The translations under genes and the position numbers were made by a program. The notes beneath the pieces were generated by a model, which searched no databases, was not told the origin of the DNA, and worked only from the letters and a program-made list of their open reading frames with translations. A DNA stretch of 7,461 bases from a virus (lineage: Duplodnaviria > Heunggongvirae > Uroviricota > Caudoviricetes): IMG/VR virus record IMGVR_UViG_2778261152_000006, one strand, 5' to 3'. Below, in pieces: positions 1 through 7,461 of this stretch (positions are counted from its first letter, which is position 1; every line of letters starts with the position of its first letter).

Positions 1-201
1 TTCTTGATCTGTATCTTTATCTGTATCTTTATCTGTCGTGACTCGTCGTGACATGTGCGTGACATTTCGTGACGCGCTCACCAGGAGGTGGATATACACT
101 GCCATCACTGTTGCAATTGGCTGCCCTGACACCCTGGCAATTGTTCGCCACTTAGGGTCATTTGGCATGTCATGCCATAATCTGAGCCAGGCGTTAGCCA
201 T
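1..201 (-). CDS. Replication-initiation-like protein (YdaU/DUF1376-like), N-terminal 67 codons only; continues beyond window start
   Basis: Not in the ORF track because it runs off the edge. My own minus-strand translation from ATG (plus 199-201) gives MANAWLRLWHDMPNDPKWRTIARVSGQPIATVMAVYIHLLVSASRNVTHMSRRVTTDKDTDKDTDQE with no stop to position 1. SD-like GAGGTGA lies 5 nt upstream. Position directly downstream of the CII-like gene matches the lambda cro-cII-O layout. Family assignment is from memory of the motif pattern, not a search. Confidence 0.5.
   Translation of the reverse strand, partial: MANAWLRLWHDMPNDPKWRTIARVSGQPIATVMAVYIHLLVSASRNVTHMSRRVTTDKDTDKDTDQE
7..36. repeat. 12 bp tandem direct repeat ATCTGTATCTTT x2.5
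   Basis: atctgtatcttt atctgtatcttt atctgt read directly. Lies inside the YdaU-like coding frame (minus strand), where it encodes DKDTDKDTD. Confidence 0.8.
37..73. repeat. Four CGTGAC (GTCACG on minus) hexamer repeats phased at 10-11 bp; iteron-like
   Basis: CGTGAC at 37, 47, 58 and 68. The helical-turn spacing and the adjacent AT-rich tandem repeat resemble an iteron plus AT-rich origin arrangement. Confidence 0.6.
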
Positions 202-272
202 ACTCACCTCTTTTGATACCGAATCTTTTTACTCACAAATTGCCGGAAGTGATCCGGTATGAATATTGCGAG

Positions 273-698
273 TCAATGCACAGCCACAATATTTCCTGCA
301 GGGCCACCACGATTCATCTGGTTGAAACCAGCGATCGCCACTGCGACAAAATCATCAGCGTCTCTCACCAGTCGTTCCCGCGTCTCCACTAGTTCCCGAA
401 AATAGGCTGAGCTATGGCTGCGCATTCGGGCCACCAGCAGAGGTGGCATTGCTTTTTCGATAGCTGGTAACAACGCCTGAATTTTTTCAACTGCATCAGG
501 GGTGTCTTTCTCTACCCAGCGGAAAATTTTCTGGGTATTGCGAGCCAGGGCTTCCGGATGGCTGTCGTCATACAGTTCTGGGAACGTCATACCCAGTTCA
601 AAATAAGCCCTGGTTATTTCAGCTGCCGGAACTTTTTCACCGTCCGGATGCGCCCAGGCATTCATCGCCATGCGGATGTGTTCATGCTTGATTTTCAT
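273..698 (-). CDS. ydaT: CII-like prophage regulator (YdaT family), 141 aa
   Basis: ORF-track 141 aa protein starting MKIKHEHI, which I recall as the YdaT N-terminus. GGAG lies about 8 nt upstream of the ATG on the minus strand. Start overlaps the end of the upstream Cro-like gene by 17 nt. Symbol is tentative. Confidence 0.7.
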   Translation of the reverse strand: MKIKHEHIRMAMNAWAHPDGEKVPAAEITRAYFELGMTFPELYDDSHPEALARNTQKIFRWVEKDTPDAVEKIQALLPAIEKAMPPLLVARMRSHSSAYFRELVETRERLVRDADDFVAVAIAGFNQMNRGGPAGNIVAVH

Positions 699-963
699 GA
701 ATCAAGCTCCTAGAAAGTGGTTGTGTTAACATTTTGGTATCTTCCAGCTCGGGCCAAATATTCATCCAATCAAAAGGCCTTAGTTGCTGACGTGTAACTT
801 CACCATTACTGGCTCGCTCAATAAGGACACATAACGATGCCCCTAACACTTGACCTTTACTCAATGCCTTTCTTAGATAACCGATGCTGGTACCACACTC
901 GCATGCAAACATACGCTGTTCATCTGACGAAAGAGAATTGAGAAATATTCTTAATTCTTCCAT
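682..963 (-). CDS. Cro-like HTH regulator (YdaS-family analogue), 93 aa
   Basis: 93 aa ORF with an HTH-like segment (ECGTSIGYLRKALSKGQ) and a ...GEVTRQQLRPFDW tail typical of Cro/YdaS-family proteins. Strong SD AAGGAG 6 nt upstream of the ATG on the minus strand. Divergent from the repressor gene across a 100 bp operator-bearing intergenic region. Confidence 0.7.
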   Translation of the reverse strand: MEELRIFLNSLSSDEQRMFACECGTSIGYLRKALSKGQVLGASLCVLIERASNGEVTRQQLRPFDWMNIWPELEDTKMLTQPLSRSLIHENQA

Positions 964-992
964 AGCTACTCCTTAGTAAACACAGCAAAGAA

Positions 993-1069
993 CACCCATA
1001 GGTAAACAAAAGTCAATACCCACAGGTTGTTTACCTTGCAGTAATCGCATCTATTATTTACCTATGGAC
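993..1069. promoter_or_regulatory. OR-like operator cluster between the divergent Cro-like and repressor genes; repeated TACC-N4-GGTA / GGTAAA half-sites
   Basis: CCATAGGTAAA at 996-1006 and its reverse complement TTTACCTATGG at 1057-1067 (11/11). GGTAAACAA at 1001-1009 and its reverse complement TTGTTTACC at 1027-1035. The last site overlaps the repressor ATG at 1064. Confidence 0.5.
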
Positions 1070-1483
1070 AAATATGAATTTAGACGACAGCAACTCATCA
1101 AAATTCGTGATGAGAAATGCGATGGTAAAGCGGTTAACGTGGCCAGAAAGATCGGGCGCGAGCCTTCTTATGTATCAAGAATGTTGTACCCAGAGGGGAA
1201 AAAGGGAAAAAAACGGATCGCTGATGATATGGTGGAGATTATCGAAGAGTCCTTTGGGTTACCCCGGGGATGGATGGATGGTATCGTTTCATCATCAACG
1301 AACACAGCCTCCAGTTATGAAACAAGGGTTCTAACGCCACGACAACGTATTTTTTTAGATCTCTTAGACGAACTGCCAGAAAGTGAAGCGGATAACTTAT
1401 TAAAAACTCTTGAAGAGAAAAAACAGTATTACAATATGATCTACGAAGAAATCCGTAAAAAGAAAGCACAAAACGCATCATAG
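1064..1483 (+). CDS. Prophage repressor (CI/RacR analogue, HTH), 139 aa
   Basis: 139 aa ORF divergent from the Cro-like gene, in the position of racR/cI. No in-frame alternative start upstream (stop at 977-979) and no SD, suggesting a leaderless mRNA. Shorter than the 158 aa I recall for K-12 RacR, so probably a variant immunity allele. Confidence 0.7.
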   Translation: MDKYEFRRQQLIKIRDEKCDGKAVNVARKIGREPSYVSRMLYPEGKKGKKRIADDMVEIIEESFGLPRGWMDGIVSSSTNTASSYETRVLTPRQRIFLDLLDELPESEADNLLKTLEEKKQYYNMIYEEIRKKKAQNAS

Positions 1484-1525
1484 CTCACCAAACAACTAGT
1501 CACCAGTTAAGACACCGCAAAAAGT

Positions 1526-1574
1526 TACCCATGGGTATTTACTTTTTAAATACCTATGGGTATCCTTCTTTTCA
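1526..1574 (+). promoter_or_regulatory. OL-like operator palindrome downstream of the repressor gene; also folds as a 15 bp stem-loop followed by a T-rich tract (possible terminator)
   Basis: TACCCATGGGTATTT (1526-1540) and the reverse complement of 1548-1562 (TACCCATAGGTATTT) match 14/15, the mismatch being a G-U wobble in RNA. Loop 1541-1547. Followed by ATCCTTCTTTT. Core ACCCAT(A/G)GGTA is the same motif as at 995-1004. Confidence 0.45.
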
Positions 1575-1737
1575 TACCAACCCACCCCGCCCCACAGAAT
1601 GCAGGGCAATACTTCGAGTTACCAGGCAGTGGTCAGGGGTTAAGTAGCCAGCCCGAGGCGTAAGAACATGACGGCGGGATTCAAATTTTGCAGTGCAGCA
1701 GTTAGTTCCGCCACCCGGCGTTAAGGGGAGAGATAAG

Positions 1738-1872
1738 ATGGTGCATTACGAAGTAGTTCAGTATTTGATGGATTGTTGCGGTATCACTTACAACCAGGCT
1801 GTGCAGGCTTTACGCAGCAACGACTGGGATCTCTGGCAGGCAGAAGTCGCTATACGTAGCAACAAGATGTGA
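1738..1872 (+). CDS. ydaG: Small Rac prophage protein YdaG (44 aa)
   Basis: My translation MVHYEVVQYLMDCCGITYNQAVQALRSNDWDLWQAEVAIRSNKM matches my recollection of K-12 YdaG. SD AGGGGAG about 7 nt upstream. Below the ORF-track size cutoff. Confidence 0.7.
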   Translation: MVHYEVVQYLMDCCGITYNQAVQALRSNDWDLWQAEVAIRSNKM

Positions 1873-1882
1873 GATTCGCAAA

Positions 1883-2038
1883 ATGCAAAAAATCGACCTC
1901 GGCAACAACGAATCCCTGGTGTGCGGCGTGTTCCCCAACCAGGATGGAACGTTCACTGCCATGACGTATACCAAAAGCAAAACATTTAAAACCGAAACTG
2001 GTGCGCGCCGATGGTTGGAGAAGCACACAGTAAGCTAA
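1883..2038 (+). CDS. ydaF: Small Rac prophage protein YdaF (51 aa)
   Basis: My translation MQKIDLGNNESLVCGVFPNQDGTFTAMTYTKSKTFKTETGARRWLEKHTVS matches my recollection of K-12 YdaF. Stop TAA at 2036-2038 overlaps the convergent sieB stop. Confidence 0.65.
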   Translation: MQKIDLGNNESLVCGVFPNQDGTFTAMTYTKSKTFKTETGARRWLEKHTVS

Positions 2039-2523
2039 CGATTAAAACGTCTACTCCTGCTGTTCCAGAATAACTTCATAAAATGGGAGTATTTTTCGGT
2101 GACGAGATAATAAGAACAGTTTGCGCTATCACTCTGATGTTGAATGATGCCCTTCCGTTCTAATTTTTTCATAACCGGGTTACGGCAAGGAGAAGTGATA
2201 ATAAGATTTCCTGTTTTAAGGAAATCTTTAAATACAGCGATTTCTTTCTCAGATAAACGAAGCAATACTCGTTGCTCTGGTAGTAATGAATAATGCTTTT
2301 GAATATGTGCTCGCAATCTTGAGAAGGAAATGGCGACCACGAAAGAAAAGGCAAAAACGATAATCTGAAAGAGCCAAGGCATTTCAGTATAAGCATTGAA
2401 TGCGACAGTAAACTCTTTCGGTATCAGCCAGAGAGTGAGACCAAAAATGATAATCGTATACATAAGTCTTTCGAGTGGCTCGTTAGCAAAAAGTTTCAAC
2501 AATGGAGTAAATACATCCAACAT
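2035..2523 (-). CDS. sieB: Superinfection exclusion protein B (162 aa)
   Basis: The 266 aa track ORF (2035-2835, minus) contains the SieB sequence from its internal Met105 (MLDVFTPLLKLFANEPL...). ATG at plus 2521-2523 (cat on plus). Hydrophobic membrane segments are present. I chose the internal start because it matches the known about 162 aa protein. Confidence 0.8.
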   Translation of the reverse strand: MLDVFTPLLKLFANEPLERLMYTIIIFGLTLWLIPKEFTVAFNAYTEMPWLFQIIVFAFSFVVAISFSRLRAHIQKHYSLLPEQRVLLRLSEKEIAVFKDFLKTGNLIITSPCRNPVMKKLERKGIIQHQSDSANCSYYLVTEKYSHFMKLFWNSRSRRFNR

Positions 2524-2740
2524 ATCAATAACTCTCAACTGTAAGGGTATTGAAATGTTAACACAAGCTCTCGCTGTAGGGGTATAGCCGAGACCACCGA
2601 AGCCCGGAGGTGGTGAAATAAAACCGGGCACAACACGAAGGCGCATTTCCGATATCCATAAAGAGTCGGTCTTGTCTGTTAAATTTAAATGGTGGAGTGC
2701 GCCTCCGGTTGTAAATAACGACATTGCTGTGTGTAGTCCT

Positions 2741-2792
2741 GGCGGCATCAGTTTTTTTCTTGAAGTTCGGCTGATGTCCGCCCTTTTTAAAG
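2741..2792 (+). terminator. Candidate plus-strand intrinsic terminator (tL-like) in the sieB-kilR intergenic region
   Basis: GGCGGCATCAG (2741-2751) pairs with CTGATGTCCGCC (2771-2782): 11 bp with one bulge and a GC-rich base, followed by CTTTTTAAA. The 19 nt loop is unusually large, which lowers confidence. Confidence 0.3.
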
Positions 2793-2963
2793 TGAATTTT
2801 GTGATGCGGTGAATGCGGCTAAGCGCACGTGGCACAGTTAAAAGTCATGTTAGTCCTTATTGGTTTGGGTGGGAAAGCCGACTGTAATTGTTAACTGGTT
2901 GCAGTCACCTGGAGGCACCAGGCACCGCATCAACAAAGTTCATTTGTAAAAATGGAGATAATT

Positions 2964-3185
2964 ATGATTGCACATCACTTCGGAACTGATGAAATACCAC
3001 GTCAGTGTGTGACTCCTGGCGATTATGTTCTTCATGAAGGCCGGACATATATTGCCTCGGCAAACAATATTAAAAAGCGAAAACTATATATTCGTAACCT
3101 GACCACAAAAACATGCATTACTGACCGCATGATTAAAGTCTTCCTCGGTCGTGATGGTTTACCTGTAAAGGCGGAGTCATGGTGA
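2964..3185 (+). CDS. kilR: KilR, Rac prophage cell-division (FtsZ) inhibitor, 73 aa
   Basis: [77 protein letters not shown] at 2954-2957, 6 nt before ATG 2964. The track ORF starts 12 nt earlier at ATG 2952, but that start lacks the SD spacing. Confidence 0.8.
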
Positions 3186-3355
3186 TGACTAAGAAAATAA
3201 AATGTGCTTACCACCTTTGCAAAAAAGACGTTGAAGAAAGCAAAGCTATTGAAAGAATGCTTCACTTCATGCACGGGATTTTATCAAAAGACGAACCGAG
3301 AAAATATTGCAGTGAAGCTTGTGCCGAAAAAGACCAGATGGCACATGAACTTTAA
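3185..3355 (+). CDS. ydaE: YdaE, small Cys-rich (CxxC...CxxC) protein, 56 aa
   Basis: My translation [56 protein letters not shown]. Its ATG overlaps the kilR stop (TGATG). Below the track size cutoff. Confidence 0.7.
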   Translation: MTKKIKCAYHLCKKDVEESKAIERMLHFMHGILSKDEPRKYCSEACAEKDQMAHEL

Positions 3356-3429
3356 TTAATTGACTATTCGAAACTGAATTTATGCCAGAAATGGCAGGTA
3401 TTCGCTCAACCTTAATTAAGGAGAAAAAC

Positions 3430-3705
3430 ATGATTACCAATTATGAAGCCACTGTTGTAACTACCGATGACATTGTTCACGAGGTGAATCTGGAAGGAAA
3501 GCGCATTGGCTACGTAATTAAAACAGAAAATAAAGAAACCCCATTCACTGTGGTTGATATCGATGGTCCATCAGGCAACGTAAAAACACTTGATGAAGGT
3601 GTCAAAAAAATGTGCCTGGTGCATATCGGAAAGAATCTGCCCGCAGAAAAAAAAGCCGAATTTCTGGCAACTCTAATTGCAATGAAATTAAAAGGTGAAA
3701 TCTGA
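3430..3705 (+). CDS. racC: RacC, 91 aa
   Basis: Track ORF 3382-3705; I take the internal start MITNYEAT... at 3430, which is preceded by a strong SD AAGGAG (3418-3423). This gives the 91 aa I recall for RacC. Confidence 0.8.
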   Translation: MITNYEATVVTTDDIVHEVNLEGKRIGYVIKTENKETPFTVVDIDGPSGNVKTLDEGVKKMCLVHIGKNLPAEKKAEFLATLIAMKLKGEI

Positions 3706-3711
3706 AAGAAA

Positions 3712-3734
3712 TAGCCTGCGTATGGCGCAGGCTA
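3712..3734. other. Perfect 9 bp inverted repeat with 5 nt loop between racC and recE
   Basis: TAGCCTGCG-TATGG-CGCAGGCTA, 7 nt after the racC stop and 72 nt before the recE ATG. No T-tract after it on the plus strand; T-rich sequence follows on the minus strand. Confidence 0.4.
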
Positions 3735-3806
3735 TGAACAGTGTGTATCCGGCAAGATCATTCACTGAACAAAACGAATTTTAATCTGAGTTGAGGTTAA
3801 AAAACA

Positions 3807-6407
3807 ATGAGCACAAAACCACTCTTCCTGTTACGGAAAGCGAAAAAATCATCCGGTGAACCTGACGTCGTCCTGTGGGCAAGCAACGATTTTGAATCGA
3901 CCTGTGCCACTCTGGACTACCTGATCGTTAAGTCAGGTAAAAAACTGAGCAGCTATTTTAAAGCTGTTGCCACGAATTTTCCTGTCGTTAATGACCTGCC
4001 CGCTGAAGGTGAGATCGATTTTACCTGGAGTGAACGCTATCAACTCAGCAAAGACTCCATGACATGGGAACTAAAACCGGGAGCAGCACCAGACAACGCT
4101 CACTATCAAGGCAATACCAACGTCAACGGCGAAGACATGACTGAGATTGAGGAGAATATGCTACTCCCAATTTCTGGCCAGGAACTGCCCATTCGTTGGC
4201 TTGCTCAACACGGCAGCGAAAAACCGGTAACGCACGTTTCACGCGACGGACTCCAGGCATTACACATTGCTCGGGCTGAAGAACTACCGGCTGTTACTGC
4301 CCTGGCTGTTTCCCACAAAACCAGCCTGCTCGACCCGCTGGAAATTCGCGAACTCCACAAACTGGTTCGTGACACTGACAAAGTTTTCCCTAATCCTGGT
4401 AATTCAAACCTGGGACTGATAACTGCTTTTTTCGAAGCATACCTGAACGCTGACTACACCGATCGAGGACTGCTGACAAAAGAGTGGATGAAGGGTAATC
4501 GTGTTTCACACATCACTCGCACGGCTTCCGGTGCTAATGCTGGCGGCGGAAACCTCACCGATCGCGGCGAAGGTTTCGTACACGATCTGACGTCACTGGC
4601 GCGCGACGTAGCCACTGGCGTACTGGCCCGTTCAATGGATCTGGACATCTATAACCTTCATCCGGCACACGCTAAACGCATTGAGGAAATTATCGCTGAA
4701 AATAAACCGCCCTTTTCTGTTTTCCGCGACAAATTCATCACCATGCCTGGCGGGCTGGATTATTCCCGCGCCATCGTGGTTGCGTCCGTAAAAGAAGCAC
4801 CAATTGGGATCGAGGTCATCCCCGCGCACGTCACTGAATATCTGAACAAAGTACTGACTGAAACCGATCATGCCAACCCTGATCCGGAAATCGTGGATAT
4901 TGCCTGCGGTCGCTCCTCTGCCCCGATGCCGCAGCGAGTAACAGAAGAAGGAAAACAGGATGATGAAGAAAAACCGCAACCATCTGGAACAACGGCAGTT
5001 GAACAGGGAGAGGCTGAAACAATGGAACCGGACGCAACTGAACATCATCAGGACACGCAGCCGCTGGATGCTCAGTCACAGGTAAATTCTGTTGATGCGA
5101 AATATCAGGAACTGCGGGCAGAACTCCATGAAGCCCGGAAAAACATTCCATCAAAAAATCCTGTCGATGCCGATAAATTGCTTGCTGCATCACGTGGTGA
5201 ATTTGTTGACGGAATTAGCGACCCGAACGATCCGAAATGGGTAAAGGGGATCCAGACTCGCGATTGTGTGTACCAGAACCAGCCAGAAACGGAAAAAACC
5301 AGCCCAGATATGAATCAACCTGAGCCAGTAGTGCAACAGGAACCGGAAATAGCCTGCAATGCCTGCGGCCAGACTGGCGGGGATAACTGCCCTGACTGTG
5401 GTGCGGTGATGGGCGACGCAACATACCAGGAAACATTCGCTGAAGAGAGTCAGGTTGAAGCTAAGGAAAATGATCCGGAGGAAATGGAAGGCGCTGAACA
5501 TCCGCACAATGAGAATGCTGGCAGCGATCCGCATCGCGATTGCAGTGATGAAACTGGCGAAGTCGCAGATCCCGTAATCGTAGAAGACATAGAGCCAGGT
5601 ATTTATTACGGAATTTCGAATGAGAATTACCACGCGGGTCCCGGTATCAGTAAGTCTCAGCTCGATGACATTGCTGATACTCCGGCACTATATTTGTGGC
5701 GTAAAAATGCCCCCGTGGACACCACAAAGACAAAAACGCTCGATTTAGGAACTGCTTTCCACTGCCGGGTACTTGAACCGGAAGAATTCAGTAACCGCTT
5801 TATCGTAGCACCTGAATTTAACCGCCGTACAAACGCCGGAAAAGAAGAAGAGAAAGCGTTTCTGATGGAATGCGCAAGCACAGGAAAAACGGTTATCACT
5901 GCGGAAGAAGGCCGGAAAATTGAACTCATGTATCAAAGCGTTATGGCTTTGCCGCTGGGGCAATGGCTTGTTGAAAGCGCCGGACACGCTGAATCATCAA
6001 TTTACTGGGAAGATCCTGAAACAGGAATTTTGTGTCGGTGCCGTCCGGACAAAATTATCCCTGAATTTCACTGGATCATGGACGTGAAAACTACGGCGGA
6101 TATTCAACGATTCAAAACCGCTTATTACGACTACCGCTATCACGTTCAGGATGCATTCTACAGTGACGGTTATGAAGCACAGTTTGGAGTGCAGCCAACT
6201 TTCGTTTTTCTGGTTGCCAGCACAACTATTGAATGCGGACGTTATCCGGTTGAAATTTTCATGATGGGCGAAGAAGCAAAACTGGCAGGTCAACAGGAAT
6301 ATCACCGCAATCTGCGAACCCTGTCTGACTGCCTGAATACCGATGAATGGCCAGCTATTAAGACATTATCACTGCCCCGCTGGGCTAAGGAATATGCAAA
6401 TGACTAA
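3807..6407 (+). CDS. recE: Exodeoxyribonuclease VIII (RecE), 866 aa
   Basis: 866 aa [32 protein letters not shown]... ending ...[11 protein letters not shown], matching the length and sequence I recall for K-12 RecE. The C-terminal third carries the nuclease domain; the middle is acidic and low-complexity. GAGG 9 nt upstream of the ATG. Confidence 0.95.
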
Positions 6408-7086
6408 GCAACCACCAATCGCAAAAGCCGATCTGCAAAAAACCCAGGGAAACCGTGCACCAGCAGCAGTTAAAAATAGCGACGTGATTAGTTTTATTAA
6501 CCAGCCATCAATGAAAGAGCAACTGGCAGCAGCTCTTCCACGCCATATGACGGCTGAACGTATGATCCGTATCGCCACCACAGAAATTCGTAAAGTTCCG
6601 GCGTTAGGAAACTGTGACACTATGAGTTTTGTCAGTGCGATCGTACAGTGTTCACAGCTCGGACTTGAGCCAGGTAGCGCCCTCGGTCATGCATATTTAC
6701 TGCCTTTTGGTAATAAAAACGAAAAGAGCGGTAAAAAGAACGTTCAGCTAATCATTGGCTATCGCGGCATGATTGATCTGGCTCGCCGTTCTGGTCAAAT
6801 CGCCAGCCTGTCAGCCCGTGTTGTCCGTGAAGGTGACGAGTTTAGCTTCGAATTTGGCCTTGATGAAAAGTTAATACACCGCCCGGGAGAAAACGAAGAT
6901 GCCCCGGTTACCCACGTCTATGCTGTCGCAAGACTGAAAGACGGAGGTACTCAGTTTGAAGTTATGACGCGCAAACAGATTGAGCTGGTGCGCAGCCTGA
7001 GTAAAGCTGGTAATAACGGGCCGTGGGTAACTCACTGGGAAGAAATGGCAAAGAAAACGGGTGATGATGCCAACTTACTGATTTAG
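6400..7086 (+). CDS. recT: RecT recombinase, truncated by IS1: 220 native codons plus 8 IS1-encoded codons (GDDANLLI), then stop
   Basis: [32 protein letters not shown]... matches RecT up to ...WEEMAKKT. The IS1 terminal repeat then begins at 7060. Full-length RecT is 269 aa as I recall it. The ATG at 6400 overlaps the recE stop (ATGACTAA). Track ORF 6343-7086 starts at an upstream ATG that I regard as not used. Confidence 0.9.
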
Positions 7087-7114
7087 TGTATGATGGTGTT
7101 TTTGAGGTGCTCCA

Positions 7115-7390
7115 GTGGCTTCTGTTTCTATCAGCTGTCCCTCCTGTTCAGCTACTGACGGGGTGGTGCGTAACGGCAAAAGCACCGCCGGACATCAGCG
7201 CTATCTCTGCTCTCACTGCCGTAAAACATGGCAACTGCAGTTCACTTACACCGCTTCTCAACCCGGTACGCACCAGAAAATCATTGATATGGCCATGAAT
7301 GGCGTTGGATGCCGGGCAACCGCCCGCATTATGGGCGTTGGCCTCAACACGATTTTCCGCCATTTAAAAAACTCAGGCCGCAGTCGGTAA
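7115..7390 (+). CDS. insA: IS1 InsA (transposition regulator), 91 aa
   Basis: [91 protein letters not shown] is the IS1 InsA sequence. Confidence 0.95.
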
Positions 7391-7461
7391 CCTCGCGCAT
7401 ACAGCCGGGCAGTGACGTCATCGTCTGCGCGGAAATGGACGAACAGTGGGGCTATGTCGGG
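7309..7461 (+). CDS. insB: IS1 InsB (transposase frame), N-terminal 51 codons; partial at window end. Active product is the InsAB' frameshift fusion
   Basis: -1 frame relative to insA translates [51 protein letters not shown], matching the InsB N-terminus. Open to the end of the window. Confidence 0.8.
7366..7372 (+). other. IS1 A6C programmed -1 ribosomal frameshift motif (AAAAAAC) at the end of insA
   Basis: TTAAAAAAC at 7364-7372 sits in the insA/insB overlap, where the IS1 frameshift window is known to lie. Confidence 0.7.

Follow-up and report, generated by a model that had tools for sequence, protein, structure and literature searches.

The spacer between racC and recE of the Rac prophage carries a perfect palindrome, which raises the question of what this element does and on which DNA strand it works. 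The DNA analyzed here (7,461 nucleotides, called the window in the following) represents the early region of the Rac prophage. Its genes are arranged in the order ydaT' and ydaS (minus strand), racR, ydaG, and ydaF (plus strand), sieB (minus strand) and, after sieB, kilR, ydaE, racC, recE, and recT (plus strand). racC (3430–3705, stop codon at 3703–3705) is the upstream gene of the sense operon, recE extends from 3807 to 6407 and its leader (3706–3806) makes up the racC–recE gap of 101 bp. Between positions 3640 and 3860, the window is 100% identical with E. coli K-12 MG1655, and coordinates were converted by the relation MG1655 position = 1421193 − window position. Near 7060, recT is interrupted by an IS1 element (region of about 7060–7461). 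Genomes without this insertion match the window only at 1–7060, and the recT open reading frame comprises 247 amino acids in the window versus 269 without IS1. Within racC, an A8 run at about 3643–3650 (GCAGAAAAAAAAGCC) varies from A7 to A9 among otherwise near-identical loci (L040, L051, L052, L079, L095, L187). Such a length change alters the reading frame of racC and moves its stop codon, and slippage or a sequencing error may be involved. In the kilR leader, two sub-threshold Rfam matches were obtained on the plus strand: DicF (2691–2788, 39 bits), which coincides with the sRNA KilS (b4833) of MG1655, and STnc100 (2785–2971, 35.5 bits). In relatives such as L015, L225, and L236, the equivalent kilR-leader site holds DicF copies that reach full scores (73–77 bits).

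When we inspected the racC–recE spacer and applied a repeat finder, we detected the perfect inverted repeat ATAGCCTGCG / CGCAGGCTAT at 3711–3720 / 3726–3735, the arms of which enclose the loop TATGG. The first-pass annotation had described this element as a perfect palindrome with a 9 bp stem (3712–3734) and a 5-nt TATGG loop in the 101 bp gap before recE. Perfection, loop, and location were confirmed (the gap is bounded by the racC end at 3705 and the recE start at 3807), but the stem involves 10 bp (3711–3735) and is one pair longer. In the minus-strand RNA, this hairpin (HP1) consists of a GCCUGCG/CGCAGGC core plus AUA/UAU pairs with CCAUA as loop, and six of the ten pairs are G-C. Its calculated energy is −17.3 kcal/mol on the plus and −16.1 kcal/mol on the minus strand, and the corresponding z-scores of the 56-nt hairpin context are −3.7 and −5.4. 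By chance, 0.063 perfect inverted repeats with 10 bp or more and a loop of 3–8 nt are expected per window, and at least one of them was present in only 4.6% of 1000 dinucleotide-preserving shuffles. The window holds two such repeats (3711–3735 and 2203–2228), which is unexpected by chance. The second one, AAGATTTCCT-gtttta-AGGAAATCTT, is an AT-rich 10-bp repeat inside the coding region of the minus-strand gene sieB. The 221-bp region with the racC–recE hairpin has a median of one copy per genome (maximum 3) and was always found at racC–recE. A dispersed palindromic repeat (REP/BIME-like) was rejected because of this single-copy occurrence.

The sequences flanking the stem are asymmetric. On the plus strand, the tail GAACAGTG contains one T among eight residues and the stem of a plus-strand transcript would run into GAACAGUG (one U in eight), which is not the U-tract of a plus-strand or bidirectional terminator. 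On the minus strand, the tail TTCTTTCA contains five T among eight residues, and the stem is directly followed by U-rich UUCUUUCA, which represents the U-tract of an intrinsic terminator. Both the absence of a U-tract on the plus strand and the T-rich sequence beyond the stem on the minus strand had been noted in the first-pass annotation and hold true. The minus-strand tail UUCUUUCAGA (3701–3710) abuts the racC stop codon, and its U-tract is broken up by C residues. A terminator scan of the window ranked the hairpin, on the minus strand, first among 12 sites. The 12-mer GAAATAGCCTGC (minus-strand tail plus left hairpin arm, 3707–3718) recurs at 5346–5357 on the plus strand within recE, probably by chance. 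A search for trans-targets within the window retrieved only this 12-nt repeat, and the duplex energies were non-specific.

RNA 3'-end mapping had been proposed as a check on the element, and published Term-seq data for MG1655 (Adams et al., 2021, eLife, PMC7815308) indeed contain a strong 3' end at this site. In Supplementary file 1 of that study, position 1417486(+) appears as a curated 3' end, which is classified as "antisense, racC" and for which the printed sequence ends with ...CATAGCCTGCGCCATACGCAGGCTATTTCT. This position corresponds to window 3707(−). It is located inside the U-tract, 4 nt past the stem and 7 nt past the G-C core, the RNA ends with ...GGCUAUUUCU, and the racC stop codon is one base away from this 3' end. 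There are three entries for this site, two of which give average read counts of 185,664 and 146,140; in the first part of Supplementary file 1, only 6 of the 74 sites have higher counts (PMC7815308). For MG1655 1417200–1417899, no further 3' end is listed in Supplementary file 1 and no Rho-termination region in Supplementary file 2 (Adams et al., PMC7815308). Term-seq does not distinguish termination from processing, and the 3' end could also be left behind when exonucleases shorten a longer antisense transcript up to the hairpin. However, the conserved U-tract and the IsrB precedent described below make a processing origin unlikely. In the same dataset, there is a 3' end at 1419679(−), which corresponds to about window 1514(+). 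It is close to a terminator-like hairpin of 16 pairs directly downstream of racR (1526–1562, plus strand), and another 3' end is found within K-12 racR (1420148(−)).

To obtain comparative information, we collected about 260 recE-upstream loci from E. coli genomes, phage records, GTDB genomes, and IMG/VR, which were chosen by their RecE N-termini. At every locus with a small gene about 100–165 bp before recE, a hairpin directly follows the stop codon of this small gene. There are about 30 distinct hairpin variants, which belong to at least five unrelated stem families: GCCTGCG (K-12 type), GCCTGCAC or GGCCTGCAC (O111 type), ACGCCC(A/G)C or GGCCC (Gifsy type) and two further families with GCCCAC and GGCCGC. 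The loops differ freely (TATGG, TATGA, TATGC, AAC, ACT, TGT, AGT, TCA, CGAA, ACAGG, and others). In every variant, an A-run precedes the stem on the plus strand and thus, the 8-nt tail contains 3–7 T on the minus strand but only 1–2 T on the plus strand. When 21 Rac-type variants were folded jointly with RNAalifold, the consensus was precisely this hairpin with its 10 pairs, three of which show compensatory double changes, and on the minus strand the loop-closing pair is the only one that is ever broken. Almost all one-sided substitutions give G·U pairs on the minus strand, which correspond to A·C mismatches on the plus strand. In the terminator hairpin, this applies to the Gifsy type, to L105, L184, L213, and L221–224, and to the basal pair of the O111 type. 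Variants with such substitutions fold several kcal/mol better on the minus strand (−27.9 vs. −17.5 for L007; −14.0 vs. −9.4 for L221). In the O111 subfamily, 94.6% of the cells pair on the minus strand versus 87.9% on the plus strand, a value that we computed from identical counts. Exceptions that favor the plus strand are the loop-closing pair of L100 and a G→A exchange in the inner HP2 helix of some K-12-type loci. In L032 and six other IMG/VR loci, the loop (equivalent to window 3721–3725) reads CCATA, the exact reverse complement of TATGG, and the stem is unchanged, which represents a natural loop inversion. L005 and the IMG/VR loci L083, L085, L196, and L201 carry another gene before recE, and their spacers of only 23–40 bp lack the hairpin and the antisense module; thus, the module is optional in E. 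coli prophages.

For the Gifsy prophages of Salmonella, a small RNA encoded at the equivalent site has been described. IsrB-1 and IsrB-2 were detected by northern blotting and primer extension as RNAs of 88 and 94 nt with a Rho-independent terminator, they are induced by starvation in minimal medium, and the gene is located between STM2631 and sbcA (recE homologue) in the orientation → ← → (Padalon-Brauch et al., 2008, PMC2330248). IsrB was also reported among the ProQ-associated prophage sRNAs (Smirnov et al., 2017, PMC5391140). Among our loci, the Rfam model isrB (RF01386) matched the minus strand of the equivalent Gifsy-1 spacer (L007 1393–1480) with 99.3 bits, and matches of 50–96 bits were found in Citrobacter, Raoultella, and several IMG/VR loci. 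The last helix of RF01386 is the hairpin that is positionally equivalent to the window hairpin. The primer-extension 5' ends of IsrB map 6 and 12 nt downstream of the hexamer TAGAAT (L007 1497–1492). The E. coli RNA that shares the name IsrB (AzuCR, 1.988 Mb) is unrelated.

When the Rac-type spacers are aligned with the IsrB loci, the hexamer TAAAAT (3778–3783, minus strand) coincides with TAGAAT or TAGACT of the latter at equal distance from the recE Shine–Dalgarno sequence. TAAAAT is invariant in 30 Rac-type variants, save one that has TAATAT, and it is our candidate −10 box. A possible but weak −35 element (TTGTTT, 3802–3807, minus strand, 18-nt spacer), which overlaps the recE start codon, can be read from the sequence. 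It is uncertain, since it scored under the threshold of the promoter scan and its spacing is not kept in the IsrB loci. From the aligned −10 box and the mapped IsrB starts we infer a transcription start near G3770, so that the predicted antisense RNA (3707–3770, minus strand) combines an experimental 3' end with a putative 5' end; its length of about 64 nt is a prediction because promoter and 5' end are predicted too. This RNA would be fully complementary to the recE leader across 3707–3770. Its calculated two-hairpin fold has an energy of −24.9 kcal/mol (z = −4.9) and includes, in addition to HP1, a 5' hairpin (HP2, 3739–3767, minus strand) that is formed by CAGUG...CACUG and an inner helix and has UCUUGCCGG as loop in the window. 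The O111-type RNA has a largely different body sequence, with GAGUGAUGAA...UUCUUCACUC at the HP2 position, but adopts the same two-hairpin fold (z = −4.7). Within HP2 of the O111 subfamily, L013 and L221–224 carry G·U substitutions for which pairing is confined to the minus strand, and one substitution in L223 repairs a U·U mismatch. These exchanges indicate selection on a minus-strand RNA that reaches at least HP2. A coding role was rejected, since conservation of the 9-codon reading frame of the K-12-type RNA does not extend to the O111 type.

We also searched databases and published catalogs for this RNA. Rfam searches with the whole window and with a 151-nt slice yielded no family match at the hairpin but only weak generic terminator-containing models on the minus strand; RF01386 (gathering threshold 35 bits) gave no match at E ≤ 10 with either query. 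The antisense RNA is not among the 229 sRNA candidates of Shinhara 2011, and ECS025 of this catalog, which has a similar size, was rejected since it maps to the Qin prophage. It is also missing from the Hfq RIL-seq RNA table of Bar 2021, the supplements of the Cappable-seq, SMRT-Cappable-seq, and EDL933 studies contained no relevant match, and the MG1655 RefSeq record does not annotate an antisense RNA gene here. In the literature on racC/recE, we found no description of the hairpin or of the antisense RNA.

Taken together, these data indicate that the palindrome very probably serves as Rho-independent terminator and 3'-end-protecting hairpin of a minus-strand small RNA gene in the racC–recE spacer. 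The terminator function as such is well supported, and the antisense RNA of the Rac prophage is abundant, unannotated, and predicted to be small. A minus-strand terminator was one of the options put forward in the first-pass annotation, and it is strongly supported by the in vivo 3' end, the strand-specific conservation, and the corresponding IsrB terminator of the Gifsy prophages; that the hairpin is part of a separate small antisense RNA gene was not foreseen. As to the mechanism, RNA polymerase would most likely start about 7–8 nt downstream of TAAAAT (3783–3778) near G3770 and transcribe leftward for about 64 nt. The nascent RNA would fold its 5' hairpin (3767–3739) and then the GC-rich 10-bp hairpin (3735–3711), which together with the U-rich tract would release the transcript at 3707, so that a single base remains between the RNA end and the racC stop codon. 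The expected product is a compact two-hairpin RNA, which would be perfectly complementary to the racC–recE spacer of the early-left mRNA and would represent the positional counterpart of IsrB-1/IsrB-2.

An alternative scenario dispenses with a dedicated sRNA gene: the hairpin would act only as barrier for 3'-exonucleases, at which long pervasive antisense transcripts across recE (originating, e.g., from RalA read-through or from spurious promoters in the AT-rich prophage DNA) are trimmed back. The inability of Term-seq to separate termination from processing, the weak −35 element, and the absence of the RNA from one sRNA-seq catalog (Shinhara 2011) are compatible with this scenario. However, a stem with a U-tract and a 3' end 4 nt past the stem represents canonical terminator geometry, and the U-tract, which a pure exonuclease block would not need, is kept in every stem family. 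Moreover, the 5' ends mapped for the Gifsy counterpart are primary-like, its −10 box aligns with the candidate hexamer of the window, the minus-strand-specific wobble substitutions of HP2 indicate that the RNA is selected as a structure at least up to this hairpin, and neither a Rho-termination region nor another antisense 3' end is listed nearby. Thus, we consider trimming alone unlikely.

For the palindrome itself, two other functions have to be weighed; the first-pass annotation had suggested an RNA processing or stability element and a protein-binding palindrome. In the sense racC–recE mRNA, the hairpin might serve as attenuator, as non-canonical terminator, or as a stabilizer of the racC message that lowers recE expression. 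It must form in the sense RNA as well (−17.3 kcal/mol), it is located just after the racC stop codon, and the two plus-favoring substitutions (the L100 loop-closing pair and G→A in the inner HP2 helix of some K-12-type loci) would fit. On the other hand, no relative has a U-tract on the plus strand (1–2 T among eight residues), and most one-sided substitutions are A·C mismatches that break plus-strand pairing. Term-seq lists no sense-strand 3' end, which is a weak argument as the operon is repressed in the wild type. RNase III requires about two helical turns of double-stranded RNA. With its 10–11 bp, as compared with about 20 bp or more, the stem is too short for such a processing site within one strand. 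A sense-strand processing or stability element therefore lacks positive support, and we regard a role in the sense mRNA as very unlikely. A function at the DNA level, i.e., binding of a dimeric protein or a recombination/cruciform site, appears extremely improbable. The dyad symmetry is perfect, and the inverted loop of L032 indicates that the DNA can undergo hairpin-mediated rearrangement, but the stem sequence is completely replaced between relatives with pairing kept, the loop is free to vary and may even be inverted, the asymmetric A-run is always on one side, and the element is no dispersed repeat (one copy per genome at median). These data disfavor a protein-binding palindrome.

Whether the antisense RNA gene affects recE is a separate matter. 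Damping of recE/recT expression through antisense pairing or transcriptional interference, be it by the RNA or by its convergent promoter, is speculative, and a cis-acting brake on recE/recT, exerted by the RNA or by a promoter firing head-on at the recE ribosome-binding region, appears doubtful to us. If it existed, pairing of the 64-nt spacer might create an RNase III substrate and uncouple recE–recT from the upstream early genes; alternatively, convergent transcription might block read-through. A 64-bp duplex would be formed only between the antisense RNA and the sense mRNA, and the predicted 5' end of the RNA stops 23 nt short of the recE Shine–Dalgarno sequence (3793–3796). Such a brake, if real, would be one of the reasons why recE is classically silent in K-12 and would define a conserved "IsrB-position" control module for RecET-type recombinases of Rac-like and Gifsy-like prophages.

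As an intrinsic terminator, the hairpin is nothing out of the ordinary; the novelty lies in assigning it to an antisense small RNA gene that lacks annotation and in linking it to the IsrB position. The palindrome before recE, hitherto unexplained, thereby receives a concrete role as terminator of a gene for a small antisense RNA, and the Salmonella IsrB locus becomes part of a larger set of prophage RNAs, which diverge in sequence but are without exception encoded ahead of recE-type recombinase genes. Post-transcriptional or interference control of RecET becomes a testable idea. For recE studies, it should be considered that mutating or deleting the hairpin also destroys the sRNA gene on the opposite strand.

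Like the intrinsic terminators of E. coli sRNAs, the hairpin combines a GC-rich stem in the size range of 7–10 bp and a short loop with a U-rich tail, in which the RNA 3' end is located. It differs from canonical intrinsic terminators by its short and interrupted tail (UUCUUUC) and by its location within an operon on the opposite strand. Other small RNAs are encoded in the same prophage early region (RalA, KilS), and DicF is found in Qin. RalA is a type I antitoxin and KilS is sense-oriented in the kilR leader, 1 kb upstream in the window; neither of them is located at racC–recE, and no sequence similarity was found. Lambda OOP and P22 sar resemble the predicted RNA in being short, terminator-ended, antisense within a lambdoid early operon and fully complementary to the sense mRNA. 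OOP is encoded at the cII 3' end and sar at the ribosome-binding site of ant. In contrast to OOP and sar, the predicted RNA is encoded at a different locus and stops before the recE ribosome-binding site, and a regulatory role is speculative here.

The closest relation is that to IsrB-1 and IsrB-2 of the Gifsy-2 and Gifsy-1 prophages. The window RNA is predicted to be shorter (about 64 nt vs. 88/94 nt), and it lacks the first small hairpin of IsrB and the conserved loop CUUUGGUCGGU of the IsrB middle hairpin. This loop is present in the IsrB-type loci, with the shorter form UUUGGUC in L168 and L158. The motif UUUGGUC is kept in the minus-strand middle hairpins of L007, L019, L023, L158, and L168 on completely different stems (GUCCGG..., CUGGUCGG..., GGUGGG...), which suggests that it may be a functional single-stranded seed or protein-binding site of the IsrB-like RNAs. 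In L007 (1465–1490, plus strand) and at the equivalent positions of L019 and L020, there is an extra recE-leader hairpin GGGGTGC-TGTTAA-GGCACCTCC in which G·U or U·G pairs are restricted to the plus strand. IsrB starts in the loop of this Gifsy-type leader hairpin, and thus IsrB pairing would open the sense-strand leader structure. Since the Rfam isrB model does not match the window and the upstream genes are unrelated (we found no homology between RacC and STM2631), the kinship with IsrB that can be shown is one of position, not of sequence. L168 combines a K-12-like terminator stem with a UUUGGUC-loop hairpin, and such combinations hint at a mosaic family in which homology is not established. 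As far as the arrangement is concerned, both RNAs are antisense and encoded between a small early gene and a recE homologue, and both have a −10 hexamer, a candidate one in the window, at equal distance from the recE Shine–Dalgarno sequence and a middle hairpin followed by the terminator hairpin. The latter is located next to the upstream stop codon in both cases, and the gap between RNA 3' end and stop codon is one base in either locus (window 3707 vs. racC; L007 1393 vs. the STM2631 stop codon at 1389–1391).
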